This document shows, piece after piece, positions 587 through 9,891 of a DNA stretch of 9,891 nt (the stretch's first letter is position 1; the number at the start of each line of letters is the position of its first letter). The notes under the pieces were generated by a model. That model was not told where the DNA came from, did not search any database, and was given only the letters and a program-made list of their open reading frames with translations. The stretch is taken from positions 1 through 9,891 of the IMG/VR virus record IMGVR_UViG_2627853730_000001; one strand, written 5' to 3'. The stretch is from a virus (lineage: Duplodnaviria > Heunggongvirae > Uroviricota > Caudoviricetes). The position numbers and the translations under genes are program-made.

Positions 587-1198
587 TTAACCAACAACAT
601 TTTTCTTTACTGTCACTGCCCCTGATTCCTGGGTGGCGTTATTGCTCGAGTTGTACTTCTCAATAACGCGCAAAATCTCTTTGTCTGTTTCTTCACTTCC
701 CGCCATTCCTATCTTTATTGCATTTTTTAGTACGGGACGTAATGGCAAGGCATCAATGATGCTTTCTACCGCATCCTGGCTGATTGTAGATGTATTCATT
801 GCTGCCAGCCTGACAAGGTTGTTAGTACCTTCTCGCCTGATGAATGTAAGGATTAATTGCTTCTCTTGGGGGCTTAGAGAGCTAAGCGCCTGATCAATAC
901 CCGAACCTGAATCGCAATTTTTTCCGATTTTTCCGCATTCATCTTCGTTCTTGCCTGTGGCCAACCAGTCGAGTGAACAATTACAGGCTTTAGCTATTAA
1001 GGCCAGTTTATCCAAAGGAGGGAAGTTTTTCCCCTTCCTGTAATTTCTTACTGTGGCTTCAGATAGTCCACAAAGGGTCGCCAGTTCGACGTTTGTCATG
1101 TTTCCCATAGCCATAGCTAAGCGTTCTGAAAATCGGTTTATTCCTTCCATATCAATAAACCGTTCCGCACTGGATACGGTTTTTTCTGCCTTATCCAT
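587..1198 (-). CDS. Prophage lysogeny repressor (functional analogue of Mu c) with an XRE/lambda-cI-type helix-turn-helix; 203 aa.
   Basis: Leftward ORF divergent from ner across the operator, in the position of Mu c. Residues ~34-80 (MTNVELATLCGLSEATVRNYRKGKNFPPLDKLALIAKACNCSLDWLATG) fit the HTH_XRE pattern. GGGGG Shine-Dalgarno lies upstream of ATG (complement of 1196-1198). I see no obvious S24 peptidase motif in the C-terminal part. Confidence 0.75.
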   Translation of the reverse strand: MDKAEKTVSSAERFIDMEGINRFSERLAMAMGNMTNVELATLCGLSEATVRNYRKGKNFPPLDKLALIAKACNCSLDWLATGKNEDECGKIGKNCDSGSGIDQALSSLSPQEKQLILTFIRREGTNNLVRLAAMNTSTISQDAVESIIDALPLRPVLKNAIKIGMAGSEETDKEILRVIEKYNSSNNATQESGAVTVKKNVVG

Positions 1199-1354: not shown

Positions 1355-1621
1355 ATGAGGGTATCCAGACAAGCATCGAATAATTTGTTTGTTCGAGAGG
1401 GGTGTGACTGGTCTGCTAAAGCGGTATATGCAGCCCTTGAAAACAAAGGCACAGACCTCCCTGAACTGGAAAGGGAGTTAGGATTAAAAAGCGGATCAAT
1501 GCGCAATGTGTTTTACCGCCAGTGCCGTAAATACGAAGCCGCCATCGCCGAAAAAATAGGGGTTGAACCTGCTGTAATCTGGCCCAGCAGATACCAGGTG
1601 GACGCCAGAGAAGTGGCTTGA
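1355..1621 (+). CDS. ner: Ner-like DNA-binding protein (Mu Ner / Nlp-Sfs7 family), negative regulator of early transcription; 88 aa.
   Basis: Translation contains DWSAKAVYAAL and the C-terminal AVIWPSRYQ, matching the Mu Ner / E. coli Nlp signature (DWHxADIIAGL ... EVIWPSRYQ). First rightward gene after the operator, with a good Shine-Dalgarno. Confidence 0.85.
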   Translation: MRVSRQASNNLFVREGCDWSAKAVYAALENKGTDLPELERELGLKSGSMRNVFYRQCRKYEAAIAEKIGVEPAVIWPSRYQVDAREVA

Positions 1622-3722: not shown

Positions 3723-3804
3723 AATAAAAAAATAACCCGAGGGGTGACTCAGGTTATTTGAGGTTTCAGTCTCGGAGAATGCTGTCTCAAGCGAGGTGAA
3801 TAAT

Positions 3805-4737
3805 ATGACCGATATTAACGATGTAATCAAGACCATTGATGAACTTATTGATGGCGGCGTACTGACGCAGTATGCCATCGCCAGAGAGGCGGGAATTTCC
3901 GACGGCACATTATCGGCTTTCCGTAAGGGAAAATATAAAGGCGATAACGCTGCTGTGGCTGCTTCCCTGCGCTCCTGGTATGAGAACTGGAATAAACAAA
4001 GCGCACTGCCGGAACCGCCGCAGTTTGTGGAAACTCAGACAGTCCAGGAGCTGCGCGCACTGTTTCAGGCGGTTCGCCTGATGGGCTGTATTAACGTTAT
4101 TGTGGGCGTACCGGGTGTGGGTAAAACGGCCACTGCCCGTAATTACTGCCAGGAGCAACCAAACACCTGGATGATCACCCTGTCACCCGCGCACTCCAGC
4201 GTCACGGAGTGTCTGCTGGAGCTGGCCGATGCGCTGGGGATTGATTACACCCGCGCGAACAAAGGGGCATTATCCCGCGCCATCCGCCGTCGCCTGACGG
4301 GAACGCGTGGACTGGTGATTGTGGATGAGGCGGATCATCTTGGTATTGACGGTCTGGAGCAACTCCGGGCAATTCAGGACGCCACGGGGATCGGGATGGT
4401 GCTTATTGGTAACCCGCGCGGATTGTTTAAAGGTGGACGCCGCGCCTTTGATGATTTATCGCGCCTGTTCAGCCGTCTTGCCCGTACAAAACAACTTCGC
4501 AAGGCCAAAAAGGCGGATGTGCTGGCCATTGCCAGGGCATGGGGTATCAGTGGTGAGGCCGAGCTGGCCGTCATGCAGGCTATCGCTGAAAAGCCGGGAG
4601 CATTACGTGTTCTGACACATACGCTTAACCAGGCGTGGCTCACCGCCAGCGGTGAAGGCGCGGCGCTGACAGAAAAACATATTAATGCGGCCTTTAAAGA
4701 GGTTTATACCAACCCTGAATTACTCTCACAGGTGTGA
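3805..4737 (+). CDS. B: Mu B-like AAA+ ATPase, target-DNA activator of transposition; about 310 aa. Alternative GTG start at 3796.
   Basis: Walker A GVPGVGKT and Walker B LVIVDEADHL are present. N-terminal region ...GISDGTLSAFRKGKYKGDNAAV... parallels MuB ...FINDKYNGDNERV.... Length is close to MuB (312 aa). ATG 3805 is preceded by GAGGTG (3793-3798) at 6-nt spacing. Confidence 0.85.
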   Translation: MTDINDVIKTIDELIDGGVLTQYAIAREAGISDGTLSAFRKGKYKGDNAAVAASLRSWYENWNKQSALPEPPQFVETQTVQELRALFQAVRLMGCINVIVGVPGVGKTATARNYCQEQPNTWMITLSPAHSSVTECLLELADALGIDYTRANKGALSRAIRRRLTGTRGLVIVDEADHLGIDGLEQLRAIQDATGIGMVLIGNPRGLFKGGRRAFDDLSRLFSRLARTKQLRKAKKADVLAIARAWGISGEAELAVMQAIAEKPGALRVLTHTLNQAWLTASGEGAALTEKHINAAFKEVYTNPELLSQV

Positions 4738-6089: not shown

Positions 6090-6620
6090 ATGGCTAAACG
6101 CGTTACAAAATTAAAGGCCGCAGCCGAGGCAGCACCGCAGACCCGTGAAGAGGTCAGCCGCGATATCCGACGCTTTGGGGATATGCAGCGTGAGGCACTA
6201 CGCCTGGAAACGGCGATGAATGACGAAGTGGCAGAAATCACCGCCCGTTATACGCCGCAGATTGAAAACCTTAAAAAAGAAATCAAAGTGCTTTTTAAGG
6301 GGATTCATGACTGGTGTAAAACCAACCGCAATGAGCTGACGAACGGCGGCGAAACCAAAACAGCCAATCTGACCACCGGAACGGTGTCATGGCGGCTGGG
6401 AACGCCATCATGCAGCGTCAGCCGTGATGTGGAAGGCGTGATTGAAATGCTGCGCCGTATGGGCCTTGAGCGCTTCATCCGCACGAAAGAGGAAGTGAAT
6501 AAGCAAGCTGTCCTGGCGGAGCCAGATGCGGTGAAGGGCATTGCCGGTATAAAGGTGAATAAAGGCGCTGAAAGTTTTTATGTCGAGCCTTTTGAACAGG
6601 ACGCCGGACTGAATAAATAA
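6090..6620 (+). CDS. gam: Gam-like host-nuclease inhibitor (Mu Gam family, Ku-like DNA-end-binding protein), 176 aa.
   Basis: Translation matches my recollection of Mu Gam along its length: GDMQREALRLETAMNDEVAEIT, ELTNGGETKTANLTTGTVSWR, ERFIRTKEEVNKQAVLAEP. Size and position in the early region fit. Confidence 0.8.
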   Translation: MAKRVTKLKAAAEAAPQTREEVSRDIRRFGDMQREALRLETAMNDEVAEITARYTPQIENLKKEIKVLFKGIHDWCKTNRNELTNGGETKTANLTTGTVSWRLGTPSCSVSRDVEGVIEMLRRMGLERFIRTKEEVNKQAVLAEPDAVKGIAGIKVNKGAESFYVEPFEQDAGLNK

Positions 6621-6717: not shown

Positions 6718-7260
6718 ATGGCATATTTTTATTTCAAATTAGACATAGTGTACACAAATAAATATTTAACCGAATATCAGCGGGATGTTTTACCGCTACG
6801 CAACAGTATTCTTCGGGCATTACTGAAAAATACAGGCGCTGCCGGATTGCGCTTAAAGCCGTTCGCCATGGACGTAATCAGTGAGTTTTATTTTTCTGGT
6901 TCTCTGCCTGCGGGCTGGCGTAAGCGCGATGATGTGGCTTTTATCGGGGACGGACCGTGCTTTATTGCCAGACCTGATGAGTCATGCCCTGAAGGTCCGG
7001 CGATTGCCGCAATGATTGAAACCGCTGAACGTGAGTTAAGAAAGCGTCCTGATTTCCTTGTCTGGCTCTGTGAAAAGCTGGGGGTAATGAGAATCCCCTC
7101 CATGTTTAACACGGACTCCTGGTGGACCCCGTCGCTCTCCCGTGATGCCCTGTGCGTGGTGTTTAAAGTAGGCGCTTATGGCAGGGAAATAAAAGGGGGT
7201 ATTCCTGAAGAATGCCAGGAAATTAAACATTCTGAATATGTGGCGCTGACGGAGGAATAA
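6718..7260 (+). CDS. Hypothetical protein, 180 aa, no family recognised; first gene after the only sizeable intergenic gap of the early region.
   Basis: Strong AGGAACAGGA Shine-Dalgarno before ATG 6718. The 5' ~80 nt are AT-rich. The frame is open for 180 codons with no competing ORF. Confidence 0.65.
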   Translation: MAYFYFKLDIVYTNKYLTEYQRDVLPLRNSILRALLKNTGAAGLRLKPFAMDVISEFYFSGSLPAGWRKRDDVAFIGDGPCFIARPDESCPEGPAIAAMIETAERELRKRPDFLVWLCEKLGVMRIPSMFNTDSWWTPSLSRDALCVVFKVGAYGREIKGGIPEECQEIKHSEYVALTEE

Positions 7261-7263
7261 TTC

Positions 7264-7797
7264 ATGATTGATGCAAAAGTGCTTGAAGGGGTTAAAAGCT
7301 GGCTGCGTTTTTCTGGCCGTCTGACCAGTCGTTCTCTGGCAGAAAAAATGAATATGCCGCTATCCTCCATGGTTTATTTTCTGCGTGATGCGGTCGATGC
7401 CGGGGTGCTGACGGACCGTAACGGTTTTTATGATATTCCGCGTCCCCGCCCGGTGCAGGCGGTTCGTCGCAAATGCAGCCAGGAAGGTGCGGCTGATGAT
7501 GTTCAGTGGTGCAGCTTCAGAAAATCCCTGCCGTGGATTGAGGGGCATGATATTCCGTCGATGGCGTGGGAATTTGCTCAGGGAGTACTGACCTGCGAAA
7601 CCGTTTATGTGGTGGCTGAAGTTGATGAGCAGGCCATGAAAGAAGGCGTGCCCCAGTTTGTGATGGCGTATATCGACATTCGCCTGGGCGTCATTATCTG
7701 CGGCTTAAGCGGCTGGAACATCACCGGGCGCGTTCTGCGTTACCTGATTATTGACCGGACAGCGGCATCGGCAGGGATATCTGCGGAGGTGGCGTAA
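7264..7797 (+). CDS. Hypothetical protein, 177 aa, with a possible N-terminal winged-helix/HTH-like segment.
   Basis: GGAGGA Shine-Dalgarno at 7251-7256, 7 nt before ATG 7264. N-terminal RLTSRSLAEKMNMPLSSMVYFLRDAVDAGVL looks like a DNA-binding helix-turn-helix/wing, but this is a by-eye judgement. The stop overlaps the next start (TAATG at 7795-7799). Confidence 0.6.
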   Translation: MIDAKVLEGVKSWLRFSGRLTSRSLAEKMNMPLSSMVYFLRDAVDAGVLTDRNGFYDIPRPRPVQAVRRKCSQEGAADDVQWCSFRKSLPWIEGHDIPSMAWEFAQGVLTCETVYVVAEVDEQAMKEGVPQFVMAYIDIRLGVIICGLSGWNITGRVLRYLIIDRTAASAGISAEVA

Positions 7798-8312
7798 TGT
7801 TCTTTAAAACATCAAACCCTTCCGCGCTGGCTGCGTGGCAAAAATACCAGCAGGACTGCCAGAAAGTTAAGGATGAGGCAAAACGCCTTGAGGCCGTGCT
7901 GAATGTTGCGTGCCGGTCGGTATTTGTATCCGGTATCAGTGGATTTTGCTTTAAGGGACTGCGTTTTACGGAGGACAAATATCCTTTTCATCGCGACTTA
8001 TGGCGAAAACCGACTGCGTCGAATGGCTGGAGCTGCACACCGCGCACATCACGTATCCCTAAAACCCTGCGTGTTGCCTCTGATGAACTGAACAGTCTGT
8101 GGCGTGAATATTCGCCCGTCACGTATGCCAGAACCGATGCGCTGTTGTTCTGGCTGGGTATTGATTTCTCGGCAATCCTGTTTGGCCCTGTGAAGTGGTT
8201 CTGCGTTGACGATGTGATTTACCTTCAGTGCGGCGTAAAACCCGCAAAACAGAAAATGACCGAAATACTGTCTGATGAGTTTTATGCTGCTGAAAAGCGA
8301 GTCAGGGGGTGA
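7797..8312 (+). CDS. Hypothetical protein, 171 aa, no family recognised.
   Basis: Translationally coupled to the upstream gene (TAATG overlap) with GGAGGTGG upstream. Long open frame in the operon direction. Confidence 0.6.
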   Translation: MFFKTSNPSALAAWQKYQQDCQKVKDEAKRLEAVLNVACRSVFVSGISGFCFKGLRFTEDKYPFHRDLWRKPTASNGWSCTPRTSRIPKTLRVASDELNSLWREYSPVTYARTDALLFWLGIDFSAILFGPVKWFCVDDVIYLQCGVKPAKQKMTEILSDEFYAAEKRVRG

Positions 8313-8315
8313 TGC

Positions 8316-8867
8316 ATGATGAAATTACAACCCATGGGACTAAAAGGTCGCGCCCCCGCTCATGTCCGTCCGTGGACACCTGAAGAAGATGCGCTGCTGA
8401 TTGCGCTTTATTCATCCACCCCGGTTAAGGATATTGCTGCCAGAATAAAAAGAACTGTCTGGGCTGTATATAACCGGACTGGTGTATTGCGCAGTTCATA
8501 CCCGGAGTTACTGAAATATAAACACCCAAGATTTACACCTGATGAAGATAAGTTTATTCGAAAAAATGCCAGAACAATGACCTGCCAGCAAATGGGAGAA
8601 TATCTCGGACGTAATAAAGATTCTGTCAGATGTCGGGCAGGAATGATTGGTGCTGGATTAACAAAGTGCGGAGAGTTACGCCCCGGCACGCGCATATCTG
8701 ATGATGATGTACGTCTTATACGTGCGCTGCGTGATTCCGATTACCCACGCCGTCTGTCATTCCGGGAAATTGGCGAAAAGTTTGGAATATCTGAACATTC
8801 TGCTCACGCAGTTTATTACCGTCGCCGGACTGCCGAGGACGCTGTATTACGGGAGTTAACGCCATGA
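8316..8867 (+). CDS. Putative DNA-binding protein with three internal Myb/SANT-like or HTH-like repeats, 183 aa.
   Basis: Three ~45-aa segments begin WTPEEDALLIALY..., FTPDEDKFIRKNA..., ISDDDVRLIRALR...; the third ends in an HTH-like RRLSFREIGEKFGISEHSAHAVYYRR. AGGGGGTG Shine-Dalgarno precedes ATG 8316. ATGA overlap with the next gene at 8864-8867. Confidence 0.6.
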   Translation: MMKLQPMGLKGRAPAHVRPWTPEEDALLIALYSSTPVKDIAARIKRTVWAVYNRTGVLRSSYPELLKYKHPRFTPDEDKFIRKNARTMTCQQMGEYLGRNKDSVRCRAGMIGAGLTKCGELRPGTRISDDDVRLIRALRDSDYPRRLSFREIGEKFGISEHSAHAVYYRRRTAEDAVLRELTP

Positions 8868-9196
8868 TAACGACCTTATTTGTTGAATCAGATGAACCTC
8901 TTGTGTGTGCCGCCGGAATGCCGCTCTGTGGCGGAACGCTGACCGGCGTTTATTTCGGGGATTTGCGCGGTTATCCCTGGCATTCACTGGATGACGCATT
9001 TCCGCCTGATATGGAGGCTGTCGTGCTGATTGTTCAGTATGGTGACCAACAGGAACTGCGCATCGGCCATATGGGGTATGAAGGCTTTTTTATTGATGAA
9101 GAAACCGGAGCCTGCCTTGAAGATGAGGACGGACAGGTGACGCACTGGTGCCATCTTTCGGCCTTGCCGGAATTACAGGGGATACATAATGGATGA
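8864..9196 (+). CDS. DUF551-like phage protein, 110 aa.
   Basis: The C-terminal two thirds (PWHSLDDAFPPDMEAVVLIVQYG...GYEGFFIDEETG...VTHWCHLSALPE) fit the DUF551 pattern as I recall it (W-S-D-LP ... VL ... THW-LP-PE). GGGAG Shine-Dalgarno and ATGA coupling at the start. Confidence 0.55.
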   Translation: MITTLFVESDEPLVCAAGMPLCGGTLTGVYFGDLRGYPWHSLDDAFPPDMEAVVLIVQYGDQQELRIGHMGYEGFFIDEETGACLEDEDGQVTHWCHLSALPELQGIHNG

Positions 9197-9332
9197 GCAA
9201 ATTGTTGAATGTCCCACCTGTGGAAATGAGGACCCGGAGTATCTGAAAGAGTGCCCACATTGTGGTGAGATAAAATGTAACCACTGCGATATGGGCGACG
9301 ACACTGCATGTATAAATTGTGAGGATGAATAA
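9189..9332 (+). CDS. Small zinc-ribbon protein, 47 aa, with four CxxC motifs; not in the six-frame track because it is under 60 aa.
   Basis: ATG 9189 overlaps the upstream stop (ATGGATGA) with AGGGG 8 nt upstream. Translation MDEQIVECPTCGNEDPEYLKECPHCGEIKCNHCDMGDDTACINCEDE contains CPTC, CPHC, CNHC, CINC. It fills the gap between flanking genes, and its stop (9330-9332) is followed 1 nt later by the next start. Confidence 0.55.
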   Translation: MDEQIVECPTCGNEDPEYLKECPHCGEIKCNHCDMGDDTACINCEDE

Positions 9333-9333
9333 T

Positions 9334-9621
9334 ATGGAAAAAGAAATCAAATTTGCGCCTAAATCTATCGACGAAGAACTGGCTAAAATCGGCATGCTTG
9401 AACGTATGCGGGACATTATCGAATATGCGATAAAAGAAAATCTTGCAGCCAGAGAAGCCCTTTTGATAATGGAGCGGGAGATTAACCTGATTAAGGATGC
9501 TGTATCTCTGGATAATAAAATAGCCCGCGAGGAATACGTTCGCCGCAGGCTCGGTGTTGATGGTTCAGCAATTCTTACATCTGAACATTATGCAAAAATT
9601 TTTAATCTTTTTCAGCGGTAA
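9334..9621 (+). CDS. Hypothetical charged, probably helical protein, 95 aa, in an AT-rich segment.
   Basis: ATG 9334 is preceded by GAGGA (9321-9325) at 8-nt spacing; the track's longer ORF starts at GTG 9319. Sequence is rich in E/K/R/I/L. Nucleotide composition is visibly more AT-rich than the upstream operon. Confidence 0.5.
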   Translation: MEKEIKFAPKSIDEELAKIGMLERMRDIIEYAIKENLAAREALLIMEREINLIKDAVSLDNKIAREEYVRRRLGVDGSAILTSEHYAKIFNLFQR

Positions 9622-9841
9622 TCCCCATACAGGCCCGGAGATTGTCGAAATGCCAGTCGGTATTAATATATGAGCCATCCTGGATATCTTCTGTATTTTC
9701 CGGGGTAGAGTTTTTTTGAGCGAGATTGATAATATGTATTGCCTCCTCACGGGAAATCAGCCCCTTATCGAACAGGGTTACCATAAGATTTCCAGCCATT
9801 GTGAATGCGGCAACATCAAGTGCATTTTTTATATCTGACAT
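9602..9841 (-). CDS. Hypothetical protein, 79 aa, on the minus strand, convergent with and overlapping the 3' end of the 9334-9621 gene by 20 nt.
   Basis: Minus-strand ATG (complement of 9839-9841) is preceded by AAAGGAAAAA as a ribosome-binding site. It is the only substantial minus-strand ORF in the rightward early region that is not a shadow of a stronger plus-strand gene. AT-rich composition. Confidence 0.45.
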   Translation of the reverse strand: MSDIKNALDVAAFTMAGNLMVTLFDKGLISREEAIHIINLAQKNSTPENTEDIQDGSYINTDWHFDNLRACMGITAEKD

Positions 9842-9854
9842 AGATTTTTCCTTT

Positions 9855-9889
9855 TATGTTAATTGACATGGCGGTGCGGTAACACCGCC
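9855..9889. promoter_or_regulatory. Palindromic elements upstream of the minus-strand gene: near-palindrome ATGTTAATTGACAT and hairpin GGCGGTG-CGGTAA-CACCGCC; candidate operator or promoter region.
   Basis: Perfect 7-bp inverted repeat with a 6-nt loop at 9870-9889 and a near-palindrome at 9855-9868. They lie immediately 5' of the minus-strand start. There is no U-tract on either strand, so not a typical intrinsic terminator. The window ends at 9891, so context is incomplete. Confidence 0.3.
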
Positions 9890-9891
9890 CA

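Follow-up and report, generated by a model that had tools for sequence, protein, structure and literature searches.

What is encoded by an open reading frame (ORF) of 47 codons that starts inside the end of its upstream neighbour and carries four CxxC motifs? We addressed this question for the ORF found at the end of a stretch of 9,891 nucleotides of IMG/VR virus record IMGVR_UViG_2627853730_000001 (hereafter, the window). The window is the early (Pe) operon, with the semi-essential region, of a Mu-like prophage of Escherichia coli. Six complete E. coli chromosomes carry near-identical DNA (99.1-99.9%) within Mu-like prophages, which extend beyond the window into gemA, mor and the lysis and head genes. 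An earlier reading of the letters, made without database searches (the sequence-only reading), had correctly placed the ORF in a phage early operon, and had presented it as an overlooked gene paired with a DUF551-like gene. We found that the ORF is almost certainly a real gene and a homologue of gp13 of phage Mu. The best overall explanation, to which we assign a probability of about 0.55, is that this gp13 homologue is an acidic protein with two zinc sites that would serve as a protein-binding accessory factor.

The 47-aa protein and gp13 of phage Mu

The 47-amino-acid (aa) protein aligned with positions 20-60 of the 60-position profile of PHROG 5584 (E = 3.1e-26) and with the last 41 positions of PHROG 6418 (E = 2e-20). 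In tblastn searches it matched positions 7528-7650 of the Mu genome NC_000929 (87.8% identity, E = 7e-17); over residues 7-47 it is 88% identical to gp13 of Mu, D108 and SfMu, and Yersinia Mu-like phages also match. The Mu counterpart is Mup13 (gp13, formerly E14; NP_050617, 60 aa), which lies between gp12 and gp14 and has been annotated since the Mu left-end sequence M64097. The gene is thus no novelty that annotators had overlooked, and the 47-aa form is an N-terminally remodelled member of a known family (Mu gp13/E14, PHROG 5584). Both proteins have the same eight cysteines and the KC-x2-CDMGDD loop, and both genes are located upstream of gp14 in the semi-essential early region, on the same strand and in the same operon. 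The order of genes agrees with that of Mu (gp11, gp12-like, cassette, 47-aa gene, gp14-like, and gp15-like on the minus strand), the cassette being the one difference. On the other hand, the first 19 residues of Mu gp13 (MENNKTSYSWLGKFTTVKQ) are absent here and the unrelated MDEQIV (residues 1-6) stands in their place. Directly upstream lies gp12 in Mu but a cassette-borne 110-aa gene here, and RefSeq annotates the 60-aa form while leaving out the 47-aa form.

A blastn comparison of the window with Mu gave matches at 8106-8282 and then at 9207-9554, with none between, and every match to Mu-type E. coli prophages begins at 9207. These comparisons indicate that a cassette with two genes, one encoding a Myb/helix-turn-helix (HTH) protein and the other the 110-aa protein, has recombined in between gp12 and gp13, with a junction inside gp13 itself. 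Relative to Mu, the cassette stands in for the end of gp12 and for codons 1-19 of gp13, and its junction gives the zinc core a new N-terminus of 6 residues and a new start in the overlap with the upstream gene. The same core bears other N-termini in other prophages (52-, 63- and 70-aa forms). The N-terminal tail is the non-conserved part of the wider family, in which many relatives measure 45-50 aa and begin immediately ahead of the first CxxC, and the 19-residue tail of Mu gp13 is dispensable.

The two ORFs described by the sequence-only reading, 8864-9196 and 9189-9332, do exist at these positions. They overlap by 8 nt within the string ATGGATGA, which holds the ATG of the micro-ORF (9189-9191) and the TGA of the upstream gene (9194-9196). 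A Shine-Dalgarno-like (SD) AGGGGA at 9177-9182 ends 6 nt 5' of this ATG. Packing is equally tight across 8316-9621, where overlaps of 4 nt and 8 nt are followed by a gap of 1 nt, the gp14-like gene beginning 1 nt past the stop codon of the micro-protein. This is the usual layout for translational coupling. We found no promoter-like or terminator-like site on the plus strand of 7700-9891, and Pe of Mu gives a single long transcript, from ner to C, across the semi-essential region (PMC3820752). The 47-aa protein would be translated off such a long early transcript, its translation being coupled to that of the upstream 110-aa gene. Between 7700 and 9891 a single promoter-like match occurs, on the minus strand (9615-9587) and inside the 3' overlap of the gp14-like and gp15-like genes.

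To assess selection we compared the 39-codon core in 11 versions that differ at the DNA level. Between the window and Mu there are 15.5 synonymous and 5.5 non-synonymous differences over these 39 codons, i.e. proportions of 0.74 (pS) and 0.057 (pN). The ratio of non-synonymous to synonymous substitution rates (dN/dS) is ~0.02 relative to Mu and ~0.02-0.03 relative to the Mu-type copies, with synonymous change saturated. The other two frames of the same alignment gave dN/dS values of 1.8-11 relative to the Mu-type copies. All eight cysteine codons are kept in the diverged copies, and TGT and TGC are exchanged at four of them between the window and Mu. Within the lineage of the 47-aa form (92-96% DNA identity), the ATG, the SD (AGGGGA or AGGAGA), the overlap, the stop and all cysteines are kept. 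The sequence-only reading had suggested examining whether the cysteines and the frame are conserved in relatives: they are, both among the 11 DNA versions of the core and among 115 proteins (see below), and the check brought no refutation. Two antisense ORFs, at 9034-9309 and 9090-9416, were rejected because the substitution pattern fits only the plus-strand frame of the 47-aa gene.

The upstream cassette and its 110-aa gene

The first gene of the cassette encodes a 183-aa protein that matches PHROG 323 ('transcriptional regulator, D5-like', E = 2e-52) and, weakly, the Pfam Myb and AsnC-HTH families; it overlaps the 110-aa gene by ATGA. The 110-aa protein belongs to PHROG 6925 (E = 2e-51). Its homologues are limited to Mu-like prophages of E. 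coli, Shigella and Salmonella, and its gene is under purifying selection (dN/dS 0.05-0.22). A permissive tblastn search against phages revealed no relatives beyond Mu-like inserts. The label 'DUF551-like', given to this protein by the sequence-only reading, did not hold as an assignment. Its score against Pfam DUF551 (PF04448) is 14.6 bits (E = 0.062), short of the gathering score of 22. The alignment spans model positions 2-67 of 68 and residues 39-102 of the protein, and contains a W...PP...VL...VTHW..LPE pattern that we take to be typical of DUF551. Only 2 of 18 relatives give any match to DUF551 (E <= 1). The AlphaFold 2 (AF2) model of the 110-aa protein reaches a mean predicted local distance difference test (pLDDT) of only 54, and a search of BFVD with this poor model retrieved nothing at E <= 0.001, and its top 50 matches contained no DUF551 protein. 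Given the sub-threshold score, the few matching relatives and the lack of support from the fold, membership in DUF551 is unsupported and the label is a lead, not an assignment.

In Mu-like prophages of E. coli, mosaic exchange has a hot spot between gp12 and gemA (window 8283-9841 compared with loci L009-L016, L031 and L032). The small-gene cassettes found there include gp13 with gp14, extra 102-aa genes, a minus-strand DUF2513 gene, and the pair of Myb/HTH and 110-aa genes. This pair is present in 144 E. coli genomes, and in ~130 of them the match ends just short of the ATG of the micro-ORF. In two loci examined, a 116-aa gene (PHROG 6158) replaces gp13 after the pair. Because the match stops before the micro-ORF in so many genomes and a different gene follows, the 110-aa gene and the zinc gene are, to judge from their distribution, independent cassettes that abut here. 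The view that they form a functional pair can hence be dropped, as each occurs without the other: the former in these ~130 genomes, the latter in Mu, where gp13 comes directly after gp12. Matches on plasmids correspond to Mu prophages residing in plasmids. A metagenomic protein of 55 aa (P0090) runs straight from a Myb/SANT-like N-terminus (MMRLPSMGVPGRCPAHVRAWTTAEDEILMSLYAGS, cf. window 8316-8420) into the C-terminal half of the gp13 core (QKCDLCDMGDNTACMNCEGE), as if a deletion or recombination had occurred inside this same cassette. Clustering at 90% identity files the 47-aa protein with the unrelated 110-aa protein (representative P0011), which is probably an artefact of the overlapping genes or of a read-through gene call.

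One may ask whether the 110-aa protein and the zinc module are a single unit, either a two-part protein or a frameshift fusion made in the overlap. The module is found at the C-terminus of longer proteins elsewhere, and ahead of the ATG the +1-shifted frame stays open over 16 codons. However, there is no slippery heptamer at 9170-9196 and it is the SD and the ATG that are conserved, for which reason we rejected a frameshift fusion. The separate occurrence of the two genes, i.e. of the 110-aa gene in the ~130 E. coli genomes and of the zinc gene in Mu, D108 and SfMu, also speaks against a single unit. So does a Mu-like prophage of Salmonella enterica subsp. salamae, which has both genes apart and the zinc domain on a different N-terminal region. 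There, the module is the C-terminus of a 157-aa ORF (L026:4707-5180) that begins 4 nt past the DUF551-like gene and whose N-terminal 107 residues match PHROGs 60/660/3323 and 12449/5913; the deposited gene call covers the last 59 aa only, leaving a gap of 300 nt. We consider a single unit highly improbable. We judge just as sceptically the idea that the small ORF is a chance ORF or a decaying gp13 remnant, truncated by the cassette and without functional product. It would account for the loss of the first 19 residues of Mu gp13 and for the failure of the NCBI Prokaryotic Genome Annotation Pipeline (PGAP) to call the ORF in any of 14 complete genomes. Yet a remnant should not show the low dN/dS reported above in the face of saturated synonymous change, nor a frame, start, SD and cysteines kept throughout its lineage. 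Moreover, the lost tail is the part that the family does not conserve, and the exact 47-aa sequence is found on at least 1000 contigs. This explanation is already largely refuted, and the reading of the ORF as a gp13 gene is the one we pursue below.

The CDMGDD family and its possible role

We searched a profile of the close relatives against 1.84 billion representative proteins (cut-off E <= 0.001) and obtained 157 matches. The long, multi-stretch matches among them are generic CxxC-repeat proteins. Of the short matches, 94 keep C-x2-C-x(5-32)-C-x2-C-x4-C-x2-C-x7-C-x2-C, where the x4 and x7 spacers are invariant and the first loop alone varies. In a second set, 115 relatives were picked by their hidden Markov model score instead of by pattern. 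Seven cysteines (C11, C22, C25, C30, C33, C41 and C44) and G36 are invariant in this set, C8 is present in 114 of the 115, and G12, P23, K29, D34, M35, D37 and D38 are conserved in at least 95%. The four pairs of the 47-aa protein, C8/C11 (CPTC), C22/C25 (CPHC), C30/C33 (CNHC) and C41/C44 (CINC), had been read from the letters as enough for two zinc sites, and the eight conserved cysteines bear this out. The signature of the family is C-x2-C-G-x(9-29)-C-P-x-C-x4-C-x2-C-D-M-G-D-D-V-x-C-x2-C with an acidic tail, which is short past the last cysteine.

Members are either stand-alone proteins of 45-80 aa or C-terminal domains of 100-320-aa proteins with unrelated N-terminal regions; the fused forms include a fusion to a ProQ_C-like domain (E = 1e-5), the C-terminus of PHROG 6418 and the 157-aa Salmonella ORF. 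The relatives have no Pfam domain on record, bar one entry that a rescan of the relative did not reproduce. By sequence, the core family is spread across phages and mobile elements, well outside Mu-like phages. In the Klebsiella phage Kpn BU9 the relative adjoins an exonuclease and a gp2.5-like single-stranded DNA-binding protein, and in an island of Thauera that resembles an integrative and conjugative element (ICE) it is near RdgC, DUF1173 and H-NS-like genes. Relatives in marine gammaproteobacterial islands stand behind a repressor-like gene, those in metagenomic phage contigs within long runs of small genes, and one on a 209-kb contig beside topoisomerase genes. A Burkholderiales Mu-like prophage encodes a relative (P0254, L029:5001-5174) in its late region, between Phage_Mu_Gp27 and a 520-aa large terminase. 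P0254 is a weaker member of the family (E = 3e-6) that lies outside the early operon; the E. coli prophage to which the window belongs has an unrelated-looking 82-aa gene in this slot between gp27 and the terminase (L001:14263-14511).

The AF2 model of the 47-aa protein, built from the alignment of 115 sequences, has a mean pLDDT of 82 and a predicted template modelling score of 0.56. It contains a beta-hairpin (19-21/28-30), whose turn bears C22/C25, and a short helix (42-45) beginning at C41/C44. The best fold resemblances in the PDB are FYVE and PHD fingers (E 0.14-1, template modelling scores, TM, of 0.4-0.59), with the FYVE domain 2yw8 at the top (TM 0.57, probability 0.90, the E-value being non-significant). 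Those in BFVD are a 52-aa phage protein without a name and RING-type proteins (E > 0.1). These resemblances hint at a compact, cross-braced module with two zinc sites. FYVE, PHD and RING domains are two-zinc domains of ~50 residues with eight ligands, which bind proteins or ligands and not DNA, but they have no sequence relationship to the 47-aa protein. A profile search of PDB sequences returned only generic ribbons (LysW, eL43, RPA12 and rubrerythrin, E >= 0.018). In Pfam the best scores were those of Zn_ribbon_LapB (16.8 bits for a cut-off of 25.7, E = 0.005) and DZR (14.9 for 27.3), whereas Mu gp13 scored 18.2 bits against DnaJ_CXXCXGXG (cut-off 32.7). There are indeed common traits: CPxCG knuckles at hairpin turns and a small size with generic C4 ribbons and rubredoxin knuckles, acidity with the globular domain of LysW, and four CxxC pairs with DnaJ, whose domain uses them for two zinc ions. 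However, the matches to Zn_ribbon_LapB, DZR, LysW and DnaJ are below the gathering scores (E 0.003-0.1) and cover the first two knuckles only, and generic ribbons have neither the fixed x4/x7 spacing nor the CDMGDD loop of the gp13 family.

The match to gp13 provides a name and not a mechanism, because gp13 has no assigned function. The semi-essential region of Mu comprises 14 ORFs and can be deleted (PMC3325207), and its functions have been described as 'largely uncharacterized' (PMC3820752). We put forward the following mode of action only tentatively. Two Zn(Cys)4 centres would hold the fold as a compact knuckle/hairpin module, and the protein would be an accessory factor that binds protein and not nucleic acid. 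It might present its acidic DMGDD loop and tail to a host or phage protein, either at a basic, nucleic-acid-binding surface or at a metal-dependent active site. The result would be an inhibitor or an adaptor of the host-takeover or anti-defence type. The recurrence of the module at the C-terminal end of proteins whose N-terminal domains are unrelated agrees with a portable binding module, and its location in a deletable, mosaic accessory region fits a role in host takeover or counter-defence. The phrase 'regulator or inhibitor of host enzymes', used for the micro-protein by the sequence-only reading, is a conjecture.

Several observations weigh against the protein-binding accessory factor. Scans of Pfam, NCBIfam and PADLOC with the 47-aa protein, Mu gp13 and distant relatives gave nothing significant, and Foldseek searches of the AF2 model stayed above E = 0.001 in both the PDB and BFVD (best values of 0.14 and 0.10, respectively). 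The gp13 family has no Pfam or NCBIfam model and no solved relative, and our literature searches (Mu gp13, Mup13, the semi-essential region and anti-defence in Mu-like phages) found no paper on the function of gp13. The contexts of the seven distant-relative loci that we looked up are mixed and have no recurrent partner gene. Zinc binding and the topology of the ligands are predictions from sequence and model, while translation of the 47-aa gene in vivo is something we infer from selection. Finally, acidity is a weak argument for a decoy or an inhibitor.

Two other roles have to be compared with that of an accessory factor, and we consider both improbable. The protein could be a zinc-finger regulator that recognises specific DNA or RNA sequences and controls early or middle transcription, like C4 zinc-ribbon factors. 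Its gene precedes gemA and mor in the regulatory early region, and the protein has weak, sub-threshold similarity to generic zinc ribbons that contact nucleic acid in other proteins. Yet a nucleic-acid-binding protein of this composition would be surprising, with a net charge of -12 in 47 residues before thiolates are counted, a calculated isoelectric point (pI) of ~4.05, two lysines and no arginine. This holds for the family as well, whose median net charge is -9 and whose pI is below 5 in 110 of the 115 relatives. Furthermore, the invariant surface motif (DMGDD) is acidic, no helix of the model is long enough for groove recognition, and members of the family also occur in replication and packaging contexts. 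The cysteines could, with about as little likelihood, serve a rubredoxin-like redox or metal-handling protein, whether an iron electron carrier or a zinc/metal chaperone or sink. Like rubredoxins, the protein has CPxCG in its first two knuckles, its best Pfam match is the rubredoxin-type zinc ribbon of LapB mentioned above, and there are weak PDB matches to rubredoxin and rubrerythrin. These matches are all sub-threshold and restricted to the first two knuckles, however, and the aromatic core of rubredoxins is missing. Eight cysteines with fixed x4/x7 spacers point instead to structural sites, and no redox partner genes were near the gene in any context that we looked up. The acidic, protein-binding accessory factor with two zinc sites is thus the reading that we retain.

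Within this reading we also considered a bolder and rather unlikely possibility, that the gp13 CDMGDD module is an unrecognised and widespread class of counter-defence or host-takeover factors of phages and mobile elements. With its invariant acidic loop, a zinc-stapled acidic mini-domain would block a host nuclease, polymerase or defence protein, at a basic surface that binds DNA or at a metal-dependent active site, the module acting alone or being delivered by varied N-terminal targeting domains. Phages encode small acidic inhibitors that mimic nucleic acid or obstruct active sites, such as Ocr and Gp2 of T7 and Arn of T4, and there are factors with acidic tips, such as DksA/TraR. The 47-aa protein resembles them in being small, very acidic, early and encoded in a variable accessory region. 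Those proteins are not built on zinc and cysteines, except for the single C4 finger of TraR/DksA, and the resemblance is one of functional analogy only. The hypervariable placement between gp12 and gemA and the occurrence in unrelated phages and in an ICE-like island fit a role in counter-defence, but do not show it. In PADLOC-DB, the 47-aa protein, the 110-aa protein and their neighbours had no match to a defence protein at E <= 0.1.

The early operon, its annotation and implications

The features of the early operon are listed in table 1. The gp15-like and gp14-like genes converge and their 3' ends overlap by 20 nt, as do those of gp14 and gp15 in Mu. A second variable slot of the early region lies between gam and gp11, where the window has a 180-aa gene. 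Phage Mu has just a 98-nt gap there, and some related prophages carry a DUF5420 gene instead (L002:1383-1961). Beyond the window, the RefSeq annotation of the E. coli HH35 prophage includes a minus-strand 'tRNA-OTHER' (L001:19081-19160), between the genes for a minor head protein and for virion morphogenesis.

Table 1. Features of the window, with their positions, strands and the matches or evidence that define them.
Feature	Position	Strand	Match or basis
Repressor-like gene (c)	587-1198	-	
ner-like gene	1355-1621	+	
Mu-type transposase (MuA), 696 aa	1632-3722	+	
MuB-like ATPase	3796-4737	+	
Gam	6090-6620	+	
180-aa gene	6718-7260	+	PHROG 2260; no Pfam match
gp11 protein	7264-7797	+	Pfam Gp11_C, E = 3e-39
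gp12-like protein	7797-8312	+	
Mosaic cassette without DNA homology to Mu, ~920 bp	8283-9206	+	blastn of the window against Mu
183-aa Myb/SANT-like and HTH protein, first cassette gene	8316-8867	+	PHROG 323
110-aa protein	8864-9196	+	ATG start; PHROG 6925
Translational-coupling junction (SD-like site and ATGGATGA overlap)	9177-9196	+	sequence; conserved in diverged copies
47-aa eight-cysteine micro-protein	9189-9332	+	ATG start; translation MDEQIVECPTCGNEDPEYLKECPHCGEIKCNHCDMGDDTACINCEDE; PHROG 5584
Conserved two-zinc core (putative), codons 7-47	9207-9332	+	C-x2-C-G-x10-C-P-x-C-x4-C-x2-C-D-M-G-D-D-T-x-C-x2-C and acidic tail EDE
gp14 (E15)-like gene	9334-9621	+	PHROG 6075, E = 5e-44; collinear with Mu gp14
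gp15-like gene, 79 aa	9602-9841	-	PHROG 32893

The omission of the 47-aa form by RefSeq/PGAP concerns all 14 complete E. coli genomes that carry it, and four annotated loci that we examined have a gap of 137 nt between coding sequences at the micro-ORF. The 60-, 52- and 63-aa forms are annotated. GenBank and UniRef do contain the exact 47-aa sequence (BCA72774.1, Shigella sonnei entries and a UniRef 'Mu prophage protein'). The expectation that most gene callers would miss the ORF is therefore right for PGAP but wrong in general, since these databases already hold the sequence.

What is new here is the identification of the micro-ORF as gp13, the mosaic junction within the gene, the signature and spread of the family, and the gap in RefSeq annotation. 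For genome annotation, the result means that PGAP/RefSeq systematically drops the 47-aa gene and shows a false 'intergenic' gap of 137 nt in the genomes examined. For gp13, the analysis defines a domain boundary and a conserved signature, reveals strong purifying selection and shows that the family is not confined to Mu-like phages. With roughly 40 residues, the core lends itself to synthesis, mutagenesis and use as a bait. A small zinc protein in the early region of Mu will not surprise specialists, and the family becomes interesting only if a target is found. If inhibition of a host enzyme or defence proved true, gp13 and its relatives would be a new family of small zinc-based inhibitors; otherwise, gp13 would be one more conserved phage gene.

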